Source: Peptococcaceae bacterium BICA1-8
Lineage (GTDB): Bacteria; Bacillota; Peptococcia; Peptococcales; BICA1-8
Direction of reading: 5' to 3'
NCBI GenBank assembly: GCA_000802045.1
Contig: JUEF01000135.1
Span: forward strand, 8,287-72,286
DNA length: 64,000 bases
Of the stretch, positions 23,599 through 61,596 are shown in pieces (within the stretch, counting starts at the first letter, position 1; each line of letters begins with the position of its first letter). The notes beneath the pieces are model-generated. The model was not told the origin of the DNA. It was given only the letters and a program-made list of their open reading frames with translations, and ran no database searches. The position numbers were made by a program, and so were the translations under genes.

Positions 23599-25389
23599 TC
23601 AGAGCCCGGTATCTTTTTTGAGTAATTCTAAAGCTTTTTCTTCATCAGGTGTAATATAAATGGTTTTTTGGTTTTCATATATTACCATACCTGGTTTTGC
23701 TCCCCCGGGTTTTTTTACATGTTTTCTTAAAGTATAGTCTACAGGTACCTGTGCGGAATAACGTCCCTTGCTATAATAGGCTGCAAGATTAGCGGCTGTG
23801 TCTAAGATGCTTTTGGGAATTTCTTTTTTATCAGGATTTTTAATAATTACATGGGAACCTGGGATATCCTTGACGTGGAGCCATAAGTCATCATTCTTAC
23901 CTAACTTAAAAGTTACATAGTCATTTTGTTTGTTGTTTTTTCCAAGCAATATCTTATAATCTGAAATAGCAATTGCTAGGGGCTCTGACTGAGCATTACT
24001 TTTAACCTTATTTTTATTTTTTTGCGGCCGGGCTTTAACATACCCGGCTTCTTCTAATTCCCATCTAATATCCTGCAGATCCTGGGGATTATCAGATCCA
24101 TCTAGACTATTCTTAATGCTTTCCAAATAACCTAATTCTTCAATTGTGATTTTGCTTTGTTCAAGGGTTTTTTCGGAACCTACTTTGGCTTTACTGTACT
24201 TTTTAAAATACTTTTGCGCATTTTCATTAGGCGTTAAGTTTGGTTCTAGAGTAATAGCAATATTCTCCAATTCCTCTGAGTAAAAATTGGAAACTATTGC
24301 CTCTTGCCCTTGCTTGAGATTGTGCAAATTTGCAGTAATAAGTTCTCCCCATAATTTATATTTGGCGGCTATCTCAACCTCTGCGATTTTTTCCAGCTGC
24401 AGAGCTAATTTACGCTGGCAGCGGTCTAGTTCTCTATCAATTATTTTATCTAGGTCTCCGGATTTTTGTTTAAAGAAATTTGTTTCCTCACTTTTACCGA
24501 TGAAAGATTCTATCAAATCACCCATAGAAGAATGTGTTTCTTGTACTAAACCGTCAAACTGCTGCAAGGAAAAGGGAGCAAAAGCAAAAGGCTTGCCCTC
24601 AGTATCTCTGACAAGTGTTGGTTGGTATGTCTGGGATAATATCAGGGTTTTTAACCAGTTTAGACTTTTCCAAAGACTTAAGTATTCATATTCACCTAAA
24701 AATTCCAGACTGTTTTCCAAATCAATTCCAGCTCGAACAGTTAATTCTTTAGCCGTTTGGGGTCCAAAACCTTCCATTATATTAAGTAAAGCTTTATGAA
24801 CCTTTTGTTCGGGGGGCAGATTTTGAAATCTCTCAACTAGGGTTTCTTCAGTTATTTCCTCAAGCTTAACTTTTTCCTGGGGTGGTGGAGAAATATAAGG
24901 GGCCCCCGGTAGTATTTCGCGGTATTGATTTACTGCATGACTTAAGCGTTTAATACTATCAAGAATTATTCTTTCGTTTTGTTTTATCAAAATTAGATTA
25001 CTGTGTTTTCCCATAAACTCTCCGATGAGAATTTTACTCACCTTATCTCCTAATTCATCAAAACCTTCTAATATAAAGTGAACAATTCTTTCTAAACCTT
25101 GTTGTTCAATATTTACAATTTTACTACCTTCTAGGTGCTTTCTCAGAACCATACAAAACAAGGGGGGCTGGAGAGGGTTTTGTCTGGCAGTATTGGTTAA
25201 ATTGAAGCGAGCACTTTGGGGTTTTACGGTAATTAAAAGCCGTAGGTTTTTACCTGGCTGTCTAATTGTCATAACTAGAGTATTGTGATCAGGCTGTTGT
25301 ATCTTATCTATTCTACCGCCAATTAACTGAGGCTTCAGTTCATCAACTAAAGCTCTTATGGCTATACCGTCTAATGACAAGTTAGTCAC
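23599..25389 (-). CDS. rqcH: NFACT-family ribosome quality control protein (fibronectin-binding protein A / YloA)
   Basis: 596 aa. N-terminus LDGIAIRALVDEL...RIDKIQQP and a C-terminal DUF814-type region. AGGAGGTG RBS. yloA-yloB synteny. Confidence 0.85.
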   Translation of the reverse strand: MTNLSLDGIAIRALVDELKPQLIGGRIDKIQQPDHNTLVMTIRQPGKNLRLLITVKPQSARFNLTNTARQNPLQPPLFCMVLRKHLEGSKIVNIEQQGLERIVHFILEGFDELGDKVSKILIGEFMGKHSNLILIKQNERIILDSIKRLSHAVNQYREILPGAPYISPPPQEKVKLEEITEETLVERFQNLPPEQKVHKALLNIMEGFGPQTAKELTVRAGIDLENSLEFLGEYEYLSLWKSLNWLKTLILSQTYQPTLVRDTEGKPFAFAPFSLQQFDGLVQETHSSMGDLIESFIGKSEETNFFKQKSGDLDKIIDRELDRCQRKLALQLEKIAEVEIAAKYKLWGELITANLHNLKQGQEAIVSNFYSEELENIAITLEPNLTPNENAQKYFKKYSKAKVGSEKTLEQSKITIEELGYLESIKNSLDGSDNPQDLQDIRWELEEAGYVKARPQKNKNKVKSNAQSEPLAIAISDYKILLGKNNKQNDYVTFKLGKNDDLWLHVKDIPGSHVIIKNPDKKEIPKSILDTAANLAAYYSKGRYSAQVPVDYTLRKHVKKPGGAKPGMVIYENQKTIYITPDEEKALELLKKDTGL

Positions 25390-25436
25390 CTCCTAATTTG
25401 CAAGTATACCATATTACTCACGGGTTTAGCTAGCAG

Positions 25437-25574
25437 GTCGGAAATACTTAGGGTCTAGCTTGAGCGTCTGACAATACTATGGGGACAAATTGTTGCGTCT
25501 GACATCGCTAATGGGTTGAGTTTTAGGGTCTGACAGTACTATGGGGACATTTTATTGCGTTTGACACTAGCTTT
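25437..25574 (+). repeat. Array of five ~31-bp units with GTCTGACA core (direct orientation)
   Basis: Core starts at 25437 (degenerate), 25466, 25497, 25528 and 25559. Spacings are 29, 31, 31 and 31 bp. Confidence 0.9.
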
Positions 25575-25584
25575 GAGATTTTTT

Positions 25585-25660
25585 CTGGGTACTGAACCCT
25601 GGGCCCTGGACACTAAGCACTTGAACACCGAGCACTTGAGCACAGCGCTCTGGACACGAA
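25585..25660 (+). repeat. CTGGG(T/C)ACTG...GGACACGAA low-complexity cassette (GAGCACT/GGACACT words)
   Basis: CTGGGTACTGAACCCTGGGCCCTGGACACTAAGCACTTGAACACCGAGCACTTGAGCACAGCGCTCTGGACACGAA. Confidence 0.85.
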
Positions 25661-25772
25661 TTTATCAGACGAGATATCTTCGCCCAGAAGTATGATCCCA
25701 GAAGTAAATGTCATTTTTCCCTTGATATTTGAATAAAAATTACTTAGTACTCTGCAAAGTGAGGGGAAACTT

Positions 25773-28526
25773 ATGGCAAATAGATTTTGGTACAATATGC
25801 ATGATTTAAAAGTTTTAGAAGAATTTCAGGTTGATGTAAAAAAGGGTCTAGACTCAAAAGAGGCTCAGCGCAGGTTGGAGTTGGTGGGTTTTAATCAATT
25901 GCGGGAAAAAGTAAAAACATCACCAATTAAAATGTTTTTTAATCAGTTCAAGGATTTTATGGTTATCGTGCTTTTAGCAGCTACAATTATCTCTGGTTTT
26001 TTAGGGGAGTATGCTGATGCTATTACCATAATGGCTATAGTCATTCTTAATTCAATTTTAGGTTTTGTGCAGGAATACCGAGCAGAGAAGTCTATGGAAG
26101 CTTTAAAAAAATTAATAGCTCCTGAAGCAATGGTTATCAGAGATGGTATAGAAAAGAAAATCCCTGCCCGGGAACTAGTTCCAGGTGAACTGGTTTTATT
26201 AGAAACCGGTGTTATAATTCCTGCGGATTTGCGTTTATTAGAAACAATTCAAATGGAAATAGAAGAATCTTCTTTGACTGGTGAATCTGTTCCTGCTAAA
26301 AAAATAGCCAGTGCAATATTTGAAACAAATACCAGCTTAGGTGATAGGAAGAATATGGCCTATATGGGTACTACCGTAACCCGGGGCAAAGGAATGGGCA
26401 TAGTTGTTGATACTGGTATGCAAACGGAAATGGGGCAGATTGCGGGACTAATTCAAAAGGTTGGTGATGAACAAACTCCGCTCCAAAGAAGGTTAGAACA
26501 ATTAGGCAGATGGCTAGTAGCTTTTTGTCTGTTAATTGTGCTGGTAGTTGTTGTTACAGGAATTCTCCGGGGTGAGCCTATTTACCAAATGTTCTTAGTG
26601 GGAGTCAGTCTGGCGGTGGCTGCTATTCCTGAAGGATTGCCTGCAATTGTTACAATTGCTTTAGCCGTAGGAGTTCAAAAAATGCTTAAAAGAAGAGCAA
26701 TTATTAGGAAGCTGCCTGCAGTAGAAACCTTGGGATGTGCCACAGTAATATGTTCTGATAAAACAGGTACCCTTACTCAAAATGAGATGACAGTGCGCAG
26801 GATTGTTATTAGTAATGAAACAATTCAAATTACAGGGGAAGGTTATGATCCTAAAGGAGAGGTGGTTGTTCCCGGGGATAAATCCCGTATGATGAGGAAT
26901 AAGGAATCCTTAAATATAGCCTTTAAAATTGCCGCCTTGTGTAATAACTCAAAGCTAAGAAAAACAGAAACAGTTATAGCCGGAATTTTTAGAAAGAAAA
27001 GCTCGAATCCTTGGCAGGTTTTAGGAGACCCCACTGAAGGAGCTCTCCTAGTTTTAGCAGCAAAAGCAGGTTTTTGGAGAGAACGTGTAGAAAAAGATGA
27101 GCAAAGAGTTTATGAAATGCCCTTCGATTCTGAACGCAAGAGAATGTCTGTTATCTATCAAAATAAAGATAAGCTTAACATTTATACCAAAGGGGCCCCG
27201 GATATTGTATTAGAAAATTGCAAATATGTTTGGTGGGAAGGGAAAATCGTTCTTTTAAACCGAGAACTAAAACAAAAAATATTAGAAAATAATGATAAGA
27301 TGGCTAATGAAGCCCTTCGAGTTTTAGCTCTAGCTTATAAACAAATTTCTGCCAATTTTGACTATGAAAGAAATGAGGCAGAGATTGAAAATGACCTGAT
27401 TTTTGTAGGATTAGCTGGAATGATTGATCCGCCCCGTCCTGCAGCAATTAAAGCTGTAGCTGTATGTAAAAACGCAGGGATAAAAACAGTTATGATAACC
27501 GGGGACCATAAAATCACTGCCCAGGCAATTGGTAAAGAACTAAAAATTTATAATGATCAGGACCTTATTTTAACGGGCAGCCAATTAGATGAAATGCCAG
27601 ACCCGGAATTAAATAAAATTATTAATAATGTAACCGTTTATGCCAGAGTATCACCAAAACATAAGCTCAGGATTGTTAAAGCCCTCAAAAAGCGGGGACA
27701 TGTGGTTGCAATGACAGGGGACGGAGTAAATGATGCCCCAGCAATTAAAGAGGCGGATATTGGAATTTCCATGGGAATAAATGGTACCGATGTAACAAAG
27801 GAATCTTCCTCTATGATTTTAGGGGATGATAATTTTGCAACTATTGTAGCTGCCGTTGAGGAAGGTCGGGCTATTTATGATAATATCAGGAAATTCATTA
27901 GATATCTTTTATCCTGTAATGTAGGTGAAGTTTTAACAATGTTTTTTGCTTCATTATTGGGATTGCCTTTGCCTTTATTGCCAATACAGATATTGTGGGT
28001 TAACTTAGTAACTGATGGATTGCCAGCAATGGCTTTAGGTGTTGATACAGCTGATCCTGATATCATGTACAGAAAACCTAGACATCCGAAAGAAAGCATT
28101 TTTGCCTATGGCTTGGCTAGACGCATAGCAGTAAGGGGAACATTAATAGGTGTCGGTACCCTTTTAGTATTTATGATAGGTTATTACTTAAATAAGAATT
28201 TAGATATAGCTAGAACTATGGCTTTTACAACACTTGTTTTCTCCCAGCTGTTTCATGTTTTTGATTGTCGTTCGGAAAAATATTCTATTTTTGAATTAGG
28301 CTTTTTCACCAACCCATTTTTAGTAGGCGCCGTAAGCTGTTCGGTAATAATGCATTTAATGGTAATTTATTTACCCTTTTTCCAAAAAATATTCAAAACT
28401 ACTCCTCTCTCTTTTAATAGCTGGCTGATTATAATTGCCGTTTCCGGTGGGTTAACAATTATGCAGAACGTGTATCGGAGCTTGAAAAGATATTATTTGA
28501 ATTTAGGGAGAACATTAAGGGCTTGA
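25773..28526 (+). CDS. yloB: P-type Ca2+-transporting ATPase (SERCA/YloB type)
   Basis: CSDKTGTLT phosphorylation motif plus TGDGVNDAPA, TGES and PEGL motifs. 917 aa. Confidence 0.9.
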   Translation: MANRFWYNMHDLKVLEEFQVDVKKGLDSKEAQRRLELVGFNQLREKVKTSPIKMFFNQFKDFMVIVLLAATIISGFLGEYADAITIMAIVILNSILGFVQEYRAEKSMEALKKLIAPEAMVIRDGIEKKIPARELVPGELVLLETGVIIPADLRLLETIQMEIEESSLTGESVPAKKIASAIFETNTSLGDRKNMAYMGTTVTRGKGMGIVVDTGMQTEMGQIAGLIQKVGDEQTPLQRRLEQLGRWLVAFCLLIVLVVVVTGILRGEPIYQMFLVGVSLAVAAIPEGLPAIVTIALAVGVQKMLKRRAIIRKLPAVETLGCATVICSDKTGTLTQNEMTVRRIVISNETIQITGEGYDPKGEVVVPGDKSRMMRNKESLNIAFKIAALCNNSKLRKTETVIAGIFRKKSSNPWQVLGDPTEGALLVLAAKAGFWRERVEKDEQRVYEMPFDSERKRMSVIYQNKDKLNIYTKGAPDIVLENCKYVWWEGKIVLLNRELKQKILENNDKMANEALRVLALAYKQISANFDYERNEAEIENDLIFVGLAGMIDPPRPAAIKAVAVCKNAGIKTVMITGDHKITAQAIGKELKIYNDQDLILTGSQLDEMPDPELNKIINNVTVYARVSPKHKLRIVKALKKRGHVVAMTGDGVNDAPAIKEADIGISMGINGTDVTKESSSMILGDDNFATIVAAVEEGRAIYDNIRKFIRYLLSCNVGEVLTMFFASLLGLPLPLLPIQILWVNLVTDGLPAMALGVDTADPDIMYRKPRHPKESIFAYGLARRIAVRGTLIGVGTLLVFMIGYYLNKNLDIARTMAFTTLVFSQLFHVFDCRSEKYSIFELGFFTNPFLVGAVSCSVIMHLMVIYLPFFQKIFKTTPLSFNSWLIIIAVSGGLTIMQNVYRSLKRYYLNLGRTLRA

Positions 28527-28552
28527 CATTTACTCACAGGTTAATATATTGG

Positions 28553-28655
28553 GTCTGACATATGCTTGGGGGTGAAATATCGCGTCTGACAATACTCCTG
28601 GGTGAACATTTTGCGTCTGACATTTTACTTTTGGGTTGAGATGCTGCGTCTGATG
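28553..28655 (+). repeat. Array of four ~31-bp GTCTGACA units (direct orientation)
   Basis: Cores at 28553, 28584, 28615 and 28648 (the last reads GTCTGATG). Confidence 0.9.
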
Positions 28656-28658
28656 AAT

Positions 28659-28696
28659 GGTGCTCTGTGCTCAGTGCTCAGTGTCCAGTGCCCAGT
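28659..28696 (-). repeat. Heptamer block GTGCTCA/GTGTCCA, the inverted copy of the CTGGGCACTGGACACTGAGCAC cassette
   Basis: The reverse complement reads ACTGGGCACTGGACACTGAGCACTGAGCACAGAGCACC. Confidence 0.85.
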
Positions 28697-28707
28697 AAAA
28701 AACTAAT

Positions 28708-28872
28708 AAAGCTAGTGTCAGACGCAATAAATTGTCCCCATAGTACTGTCAGACCTTACAGCTTAACCCATGAGTAATTGTCAGACGCCCAAGCTAGACC
28801 CTTGAGTATTGTCCGACCCTAAAACTTAACCTATAAGTAGATGTCAGAAACGCAAAAGCTAGACCCCTAAGT
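28708..28872 (-). repeat. Array of five ~31-bp GTCTGACA units in inverted orientation
   Basis: TGTCAGAC-type cores at 28716, 28747, 28779, 28810 (TGTCCGAC) and 28842. 28708-28755 is 46/48 identical to the reverse complement of 25527-25574. Confidence 0.9.
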
Positions 28873-28885
28873 AGAAAGGAAGTGT

Positions 28886-29734
28886 TTGAGAGTGAATTTT
28901 GTAAAAATGCATGGAGCAGGAAATGATTTTATTTTAATTAATTTATTAGAGGGAAATTCGCCGTTAGATTATTCCTTACTGGCTCCTAAGCTTTGCGACC
29001 GGAATTTTGGAATTGGTGCTGATGGACTTTTGTTCATTATGCCTTCCGAGACCGCTGATATTAAAATGAGGATTATTAATTCCGATGGTAGTGAAGCTGA
29101 AATGTGTGGTAATGGTATTAGATGTTTTGCAAAATTTGTTTATGAAGAGGGAATAATTAATAAAAATATAATAGAAGTAGAAACCCTAGCGGGTAAAATC
29201 ATCCCGGAAATTATTTTAAATAATAACAAAGTAGCTTCTGTCCGAGTTGATATGGGTGAGCCTAAGCTAGAAAGAAGCCAAATTCCAATGTTTGGAGAAG
29301 AGGGACGGGTAATTAAGGAGAAGTTAGTGATTGCTGAGAAAGAATTTGAAGTCACTGCTGTTAGTATGGGTAATCCCCATTGCGTTATTTTTGTACCTAA
29401 TATAAAAGAGATAGAAATAGAAAAATGGGGTCCTTTAATTGAAAAGCATCCAGTTTTCCCCCGAAAAACAAATGTAGAATTTGTCCAAGTTATTACCCCC
29501 TCTGAGGTTGTTATGCGAGTATGGGAAAGGGGTGCAGGCATAACTTTAGCCTGTGGTACAGGAGCGTGTGCAACCTTAACTGCGGGTGTTCTAAATAATT
29601 ATATTAATAGGAAGGCTTCTATAAAATTACTTGGTGGTGAATTAACTGTTGAATGGGAAGAAAATAATCACCTCTATATGACAGGTCCGGCGATTGAAGT
29701 ATTTCGCGGGGTAATTAGTATAGGTAGTCTATAG
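28886..29734 (+). CDS. dapF: Diaminopimelate epimerase
   Basis: FVKMHGAGNDF N-terminus and catalytic Cys motifs (MCGNGIRC, ACGTGACA). Start is TTG 28886 or GTG 28892. Confidence 0.9.
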   Translation: MRVNFVKMHGAGNDFILINLLEGNSPLDYSLLAPKLCDRNFGIGADGLLFIMPSETADIKMRIINSDGSEAEMCGNGIRCFAKFVYEEGIINKNIIEVETLAGKIIPEIILNNNKVASVRVDMGEPKLERSQIPMFGEEGRVIKEKLVIAEKEFEVTAVSMGNPHCVIFVPNIKEIEIEKWGPLIEKHPVFPRKTNVEFVQVITPSEVVMRVWERGAGITLACGTGACATLTAGVLNNYINRKASIKLLGGELTVEWEENNHLYMTGPAIEVFRGVISIGSL

Positions 29735-29773
29735 TCGATAGTCCATAATCGATAATTATAGCGAAAATTAGCT

Positions 29774-30778: not shown

Positions 30779-30888
30779 AATAGTGTGACGGCTATGTGGC
30801 TTACTGAATGACAGTGTGTAAGCTTAAGGGATATACAAATTGTCAGTGCTACAGTGCTACAGAAATTTAGTTGGTTTGTTTATTCTCC

Positions 30889-30916
30889 TAGTCACTAGTC
30901 ACTAGTCACCAGTAAC
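30889..30916 (+). repeat. Heptamer tandem TAGTCAC x3 plus a degenerate fourth unit, 18 nt upstream of the remA start
   Basis: TAGTCACTAGTCACTAGTCACCAGTAAC. An octamer pair AGTGCTAC x2 lies at 30845-30860. Confidence 0.9.
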
Positions 30917-30933
30917 TATATAAGGAGGGCAAA

Positions 30934-51087: not shown

Positions 51088-51096
51088 GTTACTGGC

Positions 51097-51125
51097 TAGT
51101 GACTAGTGACTAGTGACTGGTGACT
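51097..51125 (-). repeat. Heptamer tandem TAGTGAC x3 plus TGGTGAC (reverse complement of the TAGTCAC family)
   Basis: TAGTGACTAGTGACTAGTGACTGGTGACT. Confidence 0.9.
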
Positions 51126-51131
51126 GGTAAT

Positions 51132-51166
51132 AAGGCTATAGTCCATTGACTATAGTCTATAGCCTT
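51132..51166. repeat. Perfect 10-bp-stem hairpin made of CTATAG words (possible weak ribU terminator)
   Basis: AAGGCTATAG-15 nt-CTATAGCCTT. Contains the ATAGTCCAT word also seen at 29739, 34808 and 52453. Confidence 0.6.
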
Positions 51167-51276
51167 TAGCCGATAGTCAATAGACTATAGTAGAAGTTTT
51201 TAATGACCTGCTTAGCAGGTCTTTTCTTTATCATAAATTGACTATATACTGATTGTTTTTCATAAAGGTCCTTTAT

Positions 51277-51347
51277 CTGGGCACTAGTCACTGAACAACT
51301 AGTCACTGAACAACTAGTCACTGAACAACTGGACACGAAACCAAAAA
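51277..51347 (+). repeat. CTGGGCACT cassette containing an exact 15-bp tandem repeat x3, ending GGACACGAAACCAAAAA
   Basis: AGTCACTGAACAACT at 51286, 51301 and 51316 (exact copies). Confidence 0.95.
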
Positions 51348-61551: not shown

Positions 61552-61596
61552 AAAAAAGTGACTAGTCACCAGTCACTAGTAACTAGTCACTTTTTT
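61552..61596. repeat. Perfect 15-bp-stem hairpin built from TAGTCAC-family words and flanked by A6/T6
   Basis: AAAAAAGTGACTAGT-CACCAGTCACTAGTA-ACTAGTCACTTTTTT, ending 21 nt before the next start codon. Confidence 0.85.

Follow-up and report, generated by a model that had tools for sequence, protein, structure and literature searches.

The DNA analyzed in this paper, a stretch of 64,000 nucleotides from contig JUEF01000135.1 of Peptococcaceae bacterium BICA1-8 (referred to as the window), contains a gene encoding a P-type Ca2+-ATPase of the YloB/PMR1 type, which is part of a Firmicute ylo-type cluster that comprises rqcH (RqcH/NFACT, minus strand), the ATPase gene (plus strand), dapF, and yicC; a two-component system is also among the neighbors. 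Both intergenic regions bordering the ATPase gene are occupied by a composite repeat element, of which one copy fills the rqcH/ATPase gap and the other, in reversed orientation, fills the ATPase/dapF gap. A 48-nt inverted repeat that encloses the ATPase gene is very likely the best-conserved stretch of these two opposed copies of a dispersed, non-coding, modular intergenic element. The repeat is a by-product of two resident repeat elements and not a gene-specific device of the ATPase, and the ATPase gene is a bystander between them.

Anatomy of the two composite elements

The modular element measures approximately 310-350 nt and consists of an arm of tandem units, an inner unit, a heptamer microsatellite, and an inverted second arm, the whole forming a long imperfect palindrome (Table 1). 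The arm units are 31-32 nt in length and start with GTCTGACA, and Tandem Repeats Finder (TRF) reported a period of 31-32 in both gaps. The inner unit follows the pattern GTCTGACAC[T/A]AGCTTT...TTTTTCTGGG, and the central microsatellite is composed of CTGGRCA-type heptamers. Units of the first upstream arm begin with GTCGGAAA or GTCTGACA, and the second upstream arm is degenerate, its orthologue in the metagenome-assembled genome (MAG) Clostridiaceae bacterium BRH_c20a having two clear inverted units. The second arm of the downstream element is a further array, located between the ATPase stop codon and the downstream copy of the 48-mer, and its outermost unit overlaps the TGA; this arm is intact, so the downstream region as a whole is a long imperfect palindrome.

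A hidden Markov model (HMM) constructed exclusively from units of BRH_c20a, a relative of the window organism at approximately 89% nucleotide identity, detected 12 units in the window (E<0.01), all of them in the two ATPase-flanking gaps and none elsewhere in the 64 kb; the nhmmer matches in the upstream element are at 25444-25566 (+) and 25693-25665 (-). Rfam returned at the gathering threshold for the whole window an FMN riboswitch alone (RF00050, 50010-50124 on the plus strand, 116.8 bits, E 1.5e-26), and its E-value search on 25380-28900 yielded nothing. BLAST of the downstream element against the PLSDB plasmids was likewise without match.

The inverted repeat reported by the original prediction was recovered as described: the left 48-mer (GGTCTGACAGTACTATGGGGACATTTTATTGCGTTTGACACTAGCTTT) and the reverse complement of the right one are identical at 46 of 48 positions, the mismatches being at 25550/28732 (T versus A) and 25561/28721 (T versus C), and such a pair is expected by chance at a frequency of only ~3e-15 in 64 kb. 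The longest perfect stretch within the pair is 23 nt, and an extension at lower identity covers 77 nt (25508-25584 and 28698-28774, 66/77, 86%). The presence of the same heptamer block on the inner side of both arms was also established (25599-25621 versus 28673-28695, 23 nt, 91% complementary), as was the location of the pair around the ATPase open reading frame (ORF) and its conserved proximal control block. In each element the 48-mer consists of the last 'C-type' unit of arm 1 and the beginning of the inner unit. The remaining unit pairs across both regions are 70-83% alike over 39-71 nt, apart from one 26-nt pair at 96%, and the 48-mer is thus the longest match as well as the best one.

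Table 1. Positions of the repeat elements, their parts, and other features in the window
Feature	Coordinates	Strand	Basis or remark
Upstream composite element, between divergent rqcH (NFACT) and the ATPase gene	25413-25710	+	unit parsing; nhmmer
Upstream arm 1: partial outer unit (25413-25436) and four 29-31-nt units (starting at 25437, 25466, 25497, 25528)	25413-25558	+	TRF period 31, parsing
Left arm of the 48-nt repeat: last base of unit U2, last 'C-type' unit, and start of the inner terminal unit	25527-25574	+
Upstream inner terminal unit GTTTGACACTAGCTTTGAGATTTTTTCTGGG	25559-25589	+	unit type shared by many members of the family, closing arm 1 on its inner side
Upstream center, a 74-nt microsatellite of heptamers and octamers (CTGGRCA / CTGAGCA type) that equals ~10.6 heptamers in length	25585-25658	+
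Upstream arm 2, degenerate: inverted unit (25663-25692) and remnant (25693-25710)	25663-25710	-	nhmmer E 0.008
Conserved proximal block TTGAATAAAAATTACTTAGTACT...AAAGTGAGGGG, just 5' of the ATPase ATG, inside the repeat pair	25729-25772	+	alignment of six orthologous loci
P-type Ca2+-ATPase, YloB/PMR1-type, 917 aa	25773-28526	+	Pfam E1-E2_ATPase, Cation_ATPase_N/C, Hydrolase; homologue names
Downstream composite element, from the ATPase stop codon to the dapF ribosome-binding site	28522-28874	-	parsing, nhmmer
Downstream arm 2, units at 28522, 28553, 28584, 28615, 28648	28522-28662	units read on +	TRF, parsing
Downstream central heptamer microsatellite, ~5 copies	28663-28695	-	TRF period 7, 5.3 copies
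Downstream inner terminal unit (28691-28723) and arm 1	28691-28874	-	parsing, nhmmer
Right arm of the 48-nt repeat	28708-28755	-
Downstream arm 1 units	28724-28754, 28755-28786, 28787-28817, 28818-28851, 28852-28874	-
Other window microsatellites/15-mer	29725-29754, 30844-30918, 51096-51191, 51283-51330, 61557-61591

The elements fit exactly between functional signals. The downstream copy lies between the ATPase stop codon and the ribosome-binding site of dapF, and the upstream copy is bounded by an rqcH-proximal block, which is alike in all six orthologous loci, and by the proximal ATPase block. Within the rqcH-proximal block a TGGTATACT-like sequence can be read as a putative extended -10 promoter. 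The proximal ATPase block is kept even in the element-free Desulfonispora and represents a probable promoter or operator together with the ribosome-binding site. Its first part (TTGAATAAAAATTACTTAGTACT, 25729-25751) contains the near-palindrome ATTACTTAGTA just 5' of the ATPase ribosome-binding site, which is kept in six genomes including Desulfonispora and may act as operator or promoter of the Ca2+-ATPase gene. The ATPase-dapF gap yielded no intrinsic terminator. A strong sigma-70-like match (TTGACA-16-TATATT, 11/12) is formed by the outermost downstream unit at 28523-28550 (+), where it overlaps the ATPase stop codon and points to dapF. When the units were considered as promoters this was the only one to score well, and the match is not conserved in BRH_c20a.

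A dispersed family and the history of its two local copies

Genomes, one per species, were scanned for three occurrences of GTCTGACA at a spacing of 29-33 nt, which revealed at least 16 loci in BRH_c20a as well as members of the family in Clostridia bacterium DJKA51 and Bacillota bacterium Betzabe_MAG005. Many other matches of the scan are unrelated tandem repeats that happen to hold the 8-mer. A stricter metagenome scan added further BRH_c20a loci, which are 100% identical to LADT01 loci, and the two scans together provided at least 27 distinct arrays in BRH_c20a. All 27 BRH_c20a arrays examined are extragenic, none of them overlapping a real ORF, and 18 of the 22 that have two called flanks lie between co-directional genes. 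A typical member comprises arm 1, a short or heptamer-bearing center, and an inverted arm 2, with conserved center junctions (GTCTGACAC[A/T]AGC... and ...CACGATTTTATCAGACGC) and the unit consensus GTCTGACAATACTTnnGGGTnAAnATTTTGC; of the units, 27 are 31 nt long and 23 are 32 nt long. A description of the family was not encountered in a full-text search for GTCTGACA and TGTCAGAC, which returned only unrelated primer matches.

A second orthologous site, with flanking proteins that are 83-88% identical, carries an array in both BRH_c20a (L069 7700-8000 / L125 1040-1560) and DJKA51 (L105 6750-7200), and the composition of the two is quite different: the array of BRH_c20a comprises a single arm together with repeats of the AACCTTA and heptamer types, whereas DJKA51 has a compact palindrome. 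At the BRH_c20a locus L134 (5849-8186), arrays of GTCTGACA separate two successive pairs of small genes (~100 aa and ~133 aa) and a gene of 162 aa; judged by sequence, the small ORFs look like nucleotidyltransferase/HEPN-type toxin-antitoxin pairs and not like transposases.

The gene order pyr_redox - rqcH(-) - ATPase(+) - dapF - yicC - remA - gmk is common to all relatives recovered. Desulfonispora thiosulfatigenes (L149; 73% amino acid identity to the window ATPase) lacks both elements, having an upstream gap of 168 nt and a downstream gap of 58 nt, while Betzabe_MAG005 (L148; 77%) has the upstream element and none in its 20-nt ATPase-dapF gap. Both elements are present in L147 (81%), where the upstream one is degenerate, in L146 (85%), and in BRH_c20a (L130; ~92%), where they have the same places and orientations as in the window. 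One or both elements are thus missing from relatives that have the same gene order. The absence of both in Desulfonispora, the presence of the upstream one only at 77%, and of both at 81% and above indicates a stepwise insertion of the two copies in the ancestry of the lineage, in which the upstream element would be the older one. The same series bears on the idea of a composite transposon, in which the two inverted elements would have mobilized the ATPase gene as cargo. Such a history would agree with the layout of inverted repeat, gene, and inverted repeat, but it is extremely unlikely, as the ATPase gene keeps its place in the gene order of L148 and L149, which have one element or none, and no transposase was found in ~0.4 Mb of array-bearing DNA.

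Besides their presence, the internal composition of the elements varies among close relatives. The first upstream arm of BRH_c20a contains 12 units, versus 4 in the window, because a 95-nt super-unit was tripled. This super-unit, which is made up of three different 31-32-nt units, is present in tandem three times in the upstream gap of BRH_c20a (L130 2801-3180), a clear recent array expansion. The downstream element of BRH_c20a is without B and C units and hence has no downstream counterpart of the 48-mer, and the heptamer tracts of BRH_c20a comprise ~4 copies upstream and ~14 downstream, versus ~10.6 and ~5 in the window. The dispersal and the turnover of the arrays make it very improbable that phased GTCTGACA units serve as operators in a locus-specific regulatory array that controls the ATPase gene from both sides, e.g., by looping. 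The regular phase of 31-32 nt (31 nt corresponding to about three helical turns), the strongly conserved 8-mer, and the restriction of arrays to the vicinity of the ATPase gene within the 64-kb window would all suit such a function; however, in BRH_c20a the same arrays adjoin many unrelated genes, unit numbers differ 3-fold between close relatives, and relatives with the same gene order are without one or both arrays.

The near-identity of the 48-mers had been ascribed to selection or to recent gene conversion, and of these two possibilities the comparative data favor the latter. Inverted patches of high identity between the upstream and downstream elements were found in the window (48 nt at 95.8%), in BRH_c20a (82 nt at 97.6%), and in L146 (52 nt at 94% and 42 nt at 95%), and none was found between the two elements of L147. 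The position of the patch differs in each genome, that of BRH_c20a spanning the heptamers and the first unit of arm 2; because the near-identical patch sits elsewhere in each genome, repeated exchange is indicated and not selection for a fixed pairing. Moreover, both window copies carry a derived G at base nine of the unit (GTCTGACAGTACT) in place of the A of BRH_c20a, and the downstream copy of the window matches the upstream copy of BRH_c20a at 46 of 47 positions. In the set of 27 arrays from BRH_c20a, identity of at least 94% over at least 45 nt is attained by no more than 2 unlinked pairs. We infer from these alignments that the near-identity of the 48-mers arose by local exchange between neighboring inverted copies, whether through gene conversion or through transfer of units, rather than by selection on the ATPase mRNA. 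The comparisons themselves also show the internal dynamics of the elements, read as slippage or unequal exchange of 31-nt units and heptamers, combined with gene conversion between nearby copies.

Gene conversion implies physical contact of the copies, and crossovers during such contact would invert the segment between them. Inversion of the 3.1-kb ATPase segment by homologous recombination had been put forward for this locus, and a programmed switch is a further form that it could take; the inverted repeats do enclose both the gene and its proximal control region. The available assemblies speak against it: the window, the Logan assembly, and the JGI assembly of the same organism contain one orientation, 100% identical and unbroken across both repeats, and the ATPase gene has the same orientation in five relatives with 73-93% ATPase identity. 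Furthermore, in contrast to invertible segments of the hin/fimS type, no invertase or tyrosine recombinase gene adjoins the segment, its neighbors being the genes for RqcH, DapF, YicC, and a two-component system, and the longest perfect match of 23 nt is marginal, since RecA needs this much homology or more to recombine efficiently. An invertible segment is consequently regarded as very improbable, although inversion may happen rarely, and the two copies are better described as resident members of a dispersed family that probably exchange sequence locally.

Comparison with known repeats and RNA folding

The family resembles REP/BIME repeats as these and REPIN-RAYT systems have been defined (PMC3116915, PMC2817692, PMC3733652). 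It shares with them a short length, high copy number, strictly extragenic location, and preference for sites between co-directional genes, as well as long persistence at orthologous sites, vertical inheritance, and possible effects at mRNA 3' ends. Inverted partners fold into a larger hairpin in both systems, here at the level of whole arms. A REP unit is an imperfect palindrome of 20-40 nt that forms a stem-loop by itself, whereas the single unit of the present family is not palindromic, and it takes two whole arms, each of 3-12 tandem units, to make a palindrome; single units as single-stranded DNA do not fold (-1.7 and -3.0 kcal/mol, z +0.5 and -0.5 versus shuffles). The heptamer microsatellite in the center, the Firmicute host, and the fact that no RAYT gene was found in the loci covered (~0.4 Mb) are further differences. 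REPs have a conserved unpaired tag, GTAG or CGTC, at one end; here CGTC is present in GCGTCTGACA in about two thirds of the units (C at -1 in 18/27, G at -2 in 23/27) and does not adjoin a stem, in contrast to the CGTC REPs (PMC3733652). Firmicutes are not named in the text of the 2013 survey of REP super-families (PMC3733652).

With miniature inverted-repeat transposable elements (MITEs) the family has in common that its members are non-coding, are smaller than 600 bp, have a terminal inverted structure, and form a series of filled and empty sites, presence and absence at orthologous sites being a criterion by which MITEs are recognized. In contrast to MITEs, no target-site duplication was detectable and no related autonomous insertion sequence was found in the partial genomes covered. 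The BOX elements of Streptococcus pneumoniae have the structure boxA - boxB(n) - boxC, and, compared by description, they are likewise modular Firmicute intergenic elements with a variable number of tandem sub-units between partly complementary ends and a stable secondary structure when transcribed, and they are not known to have a mobilizing enzyme. The tandem units of the present family differ from those of BOX in that they build both arms, and its variable center is a heptamer microsatellite. The STRR sequences of cyanobacteria likewise consist of heptamers in tandem, and they are similar to the CTGGxCA / ACTAGTC-type heptamers that are present in the element centers and in numerous gaps between genes of the window, with the difference that the host is a Firmicute. 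Heptamer microsatellites in the intergenic regions of the window are of the types TAGTCGA, CTAGTCA, CTAGTGA, CTATAGT, and AGTCACT, next to a perfect 15-mer (ACTAGTCACTGAACA) repeated 3.2 times. Taken as a whole, the element would be a non-autonomous, REP/BIME- or BOX-like intergenic repeat, and the family has probably spread as a non-autonomous mobile element.

When folded as RNA, the downstream element forms one long imperfect hairpin of -136.4 kcal/mol (z -9.2). The corresponding z values in relatives are -4.5 for the downstream element of BRH_c20a and -7.0 and -6.3 for the downstream and upstream elements of L146, and the upstream element of the window is degenerate in this respect as well (z -0.4). 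These folds are relevant for the proposal that both 48-mers are part of one ATPase mRNA and pair over 3.1 kb to form a panhandle, which would be an RNase III substrate or a stability element under selection. A duplex of the two arms within a single RNA would indeed be strong (-84.9 kcal/mol versus -48.9 for the best local partner), and an inverted patch of high identity on both sides of the gene persists in three genomes. The pairing arms are, however, not conserved at the orthologous loci, since BRH_c20a is without the downstream unit and has its patch in the heptamer/arm-2 region, L147 has no patch, and L148 and Desulfonispora have no downstream element. Moreover, the downstream arm is contained in the local hairpin, which is available co-transcriptionally, and the upstream arm is located ~155-200 nt 5' of the proximal block that is conserved without the element, and hence is probably outside the mRNA. 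The same repeat family also flanks unrelated genes. A selected panhandle is for these reasons judged highly unlikely.

By analogy with REP/BIME and BOX elements, any effect of the two resident elements on the host would most likely be exerted through the local hairpin of the downstream copy in a read-through transcript. The insertion site of this copy corresponds to an intercistronic gap of 20 nt in L148, and a read-through ATPase-dapF transcript would therefore carry a hairpin of ~350 nt. As with intercistronic REPs, such a hairpin could stabilize the message 5' of it, attenuate the expression of dapF, or serve as a target of RNase III.

Several observations weigh against the interpretation as copies of a dispersed mobile element. 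The only two elements of the window both flank one gene, which could hint at a locus-specific role; against this hint, several other loci of the family carry a second array within a few kb. Two unlinked pairs of BRH_c20a arrays share a patch of 45-47 nt at 96-98%, and such sharing is therefore rare, yet not exclusive to neighbors. At the element ends in the window, L130, L146, and L147 no direct repeat was found that could represent a target-site duplication, a test that is limited by divergence from the empty sites, and since no such duplication is readable the evidence for mobility consists of the series of filled and empty sites. A Y1 transposase gene was not found in the window or in the Firmicute-type loci (~0.4 Mb of partial genomes), either by tblastn with two RAYT-like proteins or with an HMM of 120 RAYT/TIRYT proteins.

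A possible link to Y1 transposases

All-against-all clustering of ORFs in the same partial genomes revealed no multi-copy gene beside the arrays. A lead to a mobilizing enzyme came from arrays in other phyla. In the TIRYT/TIRtron class, inverted repeats with the motif GGGG[AT][CG]A[CG] flank Y1 transposases of subclass 2.1, which have a C-terminal helix-turn-helix (PMC3733652, Di Nocera 2013; PMC6006769, Quentin 2018). The Firmicute unit, with (G)GGGT[CG]AA, matches 7 of the 8 positions of the TIRYT motif, and exact matches are present in some units, e.g., in L106. Differences from TIRYT are that no Y1 gene was seen with the Firmicute arrays and that the order of blocks within the unit is different outside the 8-mer.

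Arrays with GTCTGACA and a period of 31 nt, as in the Firmicutes, are also present in Massilia eurypsychrophila and Pseudomonadota bin05; the 8-mer and the period were both imposed by the search pattern and as such are not independent evidence for a TIRYT link. These arrays start with GGGGTCAG and are composed of three units (GGGGTCAGGTCTGACAWTCGGACA plus 7 variable nt), a unique center of ~100 nt, and three inverted units. The center is different at every locus of these two genomes (L068, L079, L020, L051, L063, L097, and others), which is unexpected for a copied mobile element. Direct homology between the Firmicute and Massilia units beyond the 8-mer was considered and found to be weak, the shared short blocks (ACATTTTGC and a G-run) being in a different order.

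At L097 two of these arrays bracket a gene for a Y1 transposase of 296 aa (Pfam Y1_Tnp, 4.6e-11), which has weak C-terminal helix-turn-helix matches, scores 70.3 bits with NCBIfam REP_Tyr_transpos, below the cut-off of 80, and has homologues that are named RayT by their sources. This arrangement agrees with the published TIRYT/TIRtron class. Genes of related enzymes are flanked by inverted GGGGTCAGGTCTAACA, GGGGTCAGGTCTAACATTCC (L141), or AAAGGTGTCTGACCCC (L142, L144), tandem GGTGTCTGACAC units are located on one side of the enzyme gene in L073, and in gammaproteobacterial and CPR-like contigs a single GTCTGAC core is present on either side of the genes for related enzymes. In Achromobacter (L004, L016, L036), a Phycisphaerae MAG (L096, L104, L113), and L018 and L021, tandem arrays of ~30 nt have at their core the palindrome GGGTGTCTGACACCC, with a fold of a 6-bp stem and a 3-nt loop (-5.5 kcal/mol); these may be further repeats of the same Y1-associated class.

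On the basis of these resemblances we tentatively consider, as a possibility that is rather doubtful at present, that the GTCTGACA arrays are the Firmicute branch of a cross-phylum repeat class served by Y1 transposases (TIRYT/RAYT subclass 2.1). Such a class may be defined by the GTCTGAC core, a phase of ~31 nt (three helical turns), and two inverted arms.

For the locus itself, the present analysis removes a tempting over-reading, as the repeat is in all likelihood no switch for the ATPase gene and no clamp designed for its mRNA. The family displays quick gain and loss of units, growth of microsatellites inside the element, and concerted evolution of neighboring inverted copies, all of which can be traced across graded relatives. 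Moreover, arrays of this type can break or mis-join metagenome assemblies, or pass for regulatory structures. If the link to Y1 transposases holds, TIRYT/RAYT-type systems would extend to Peptococcales-like Firmicutes. A cross-phylum class of this kind would, if true, imply a conserved multimeric end-recognition complex, and repeats that are vertically inherited and evolve in concert in an uncultured subsurface lineage of Firmicutes.

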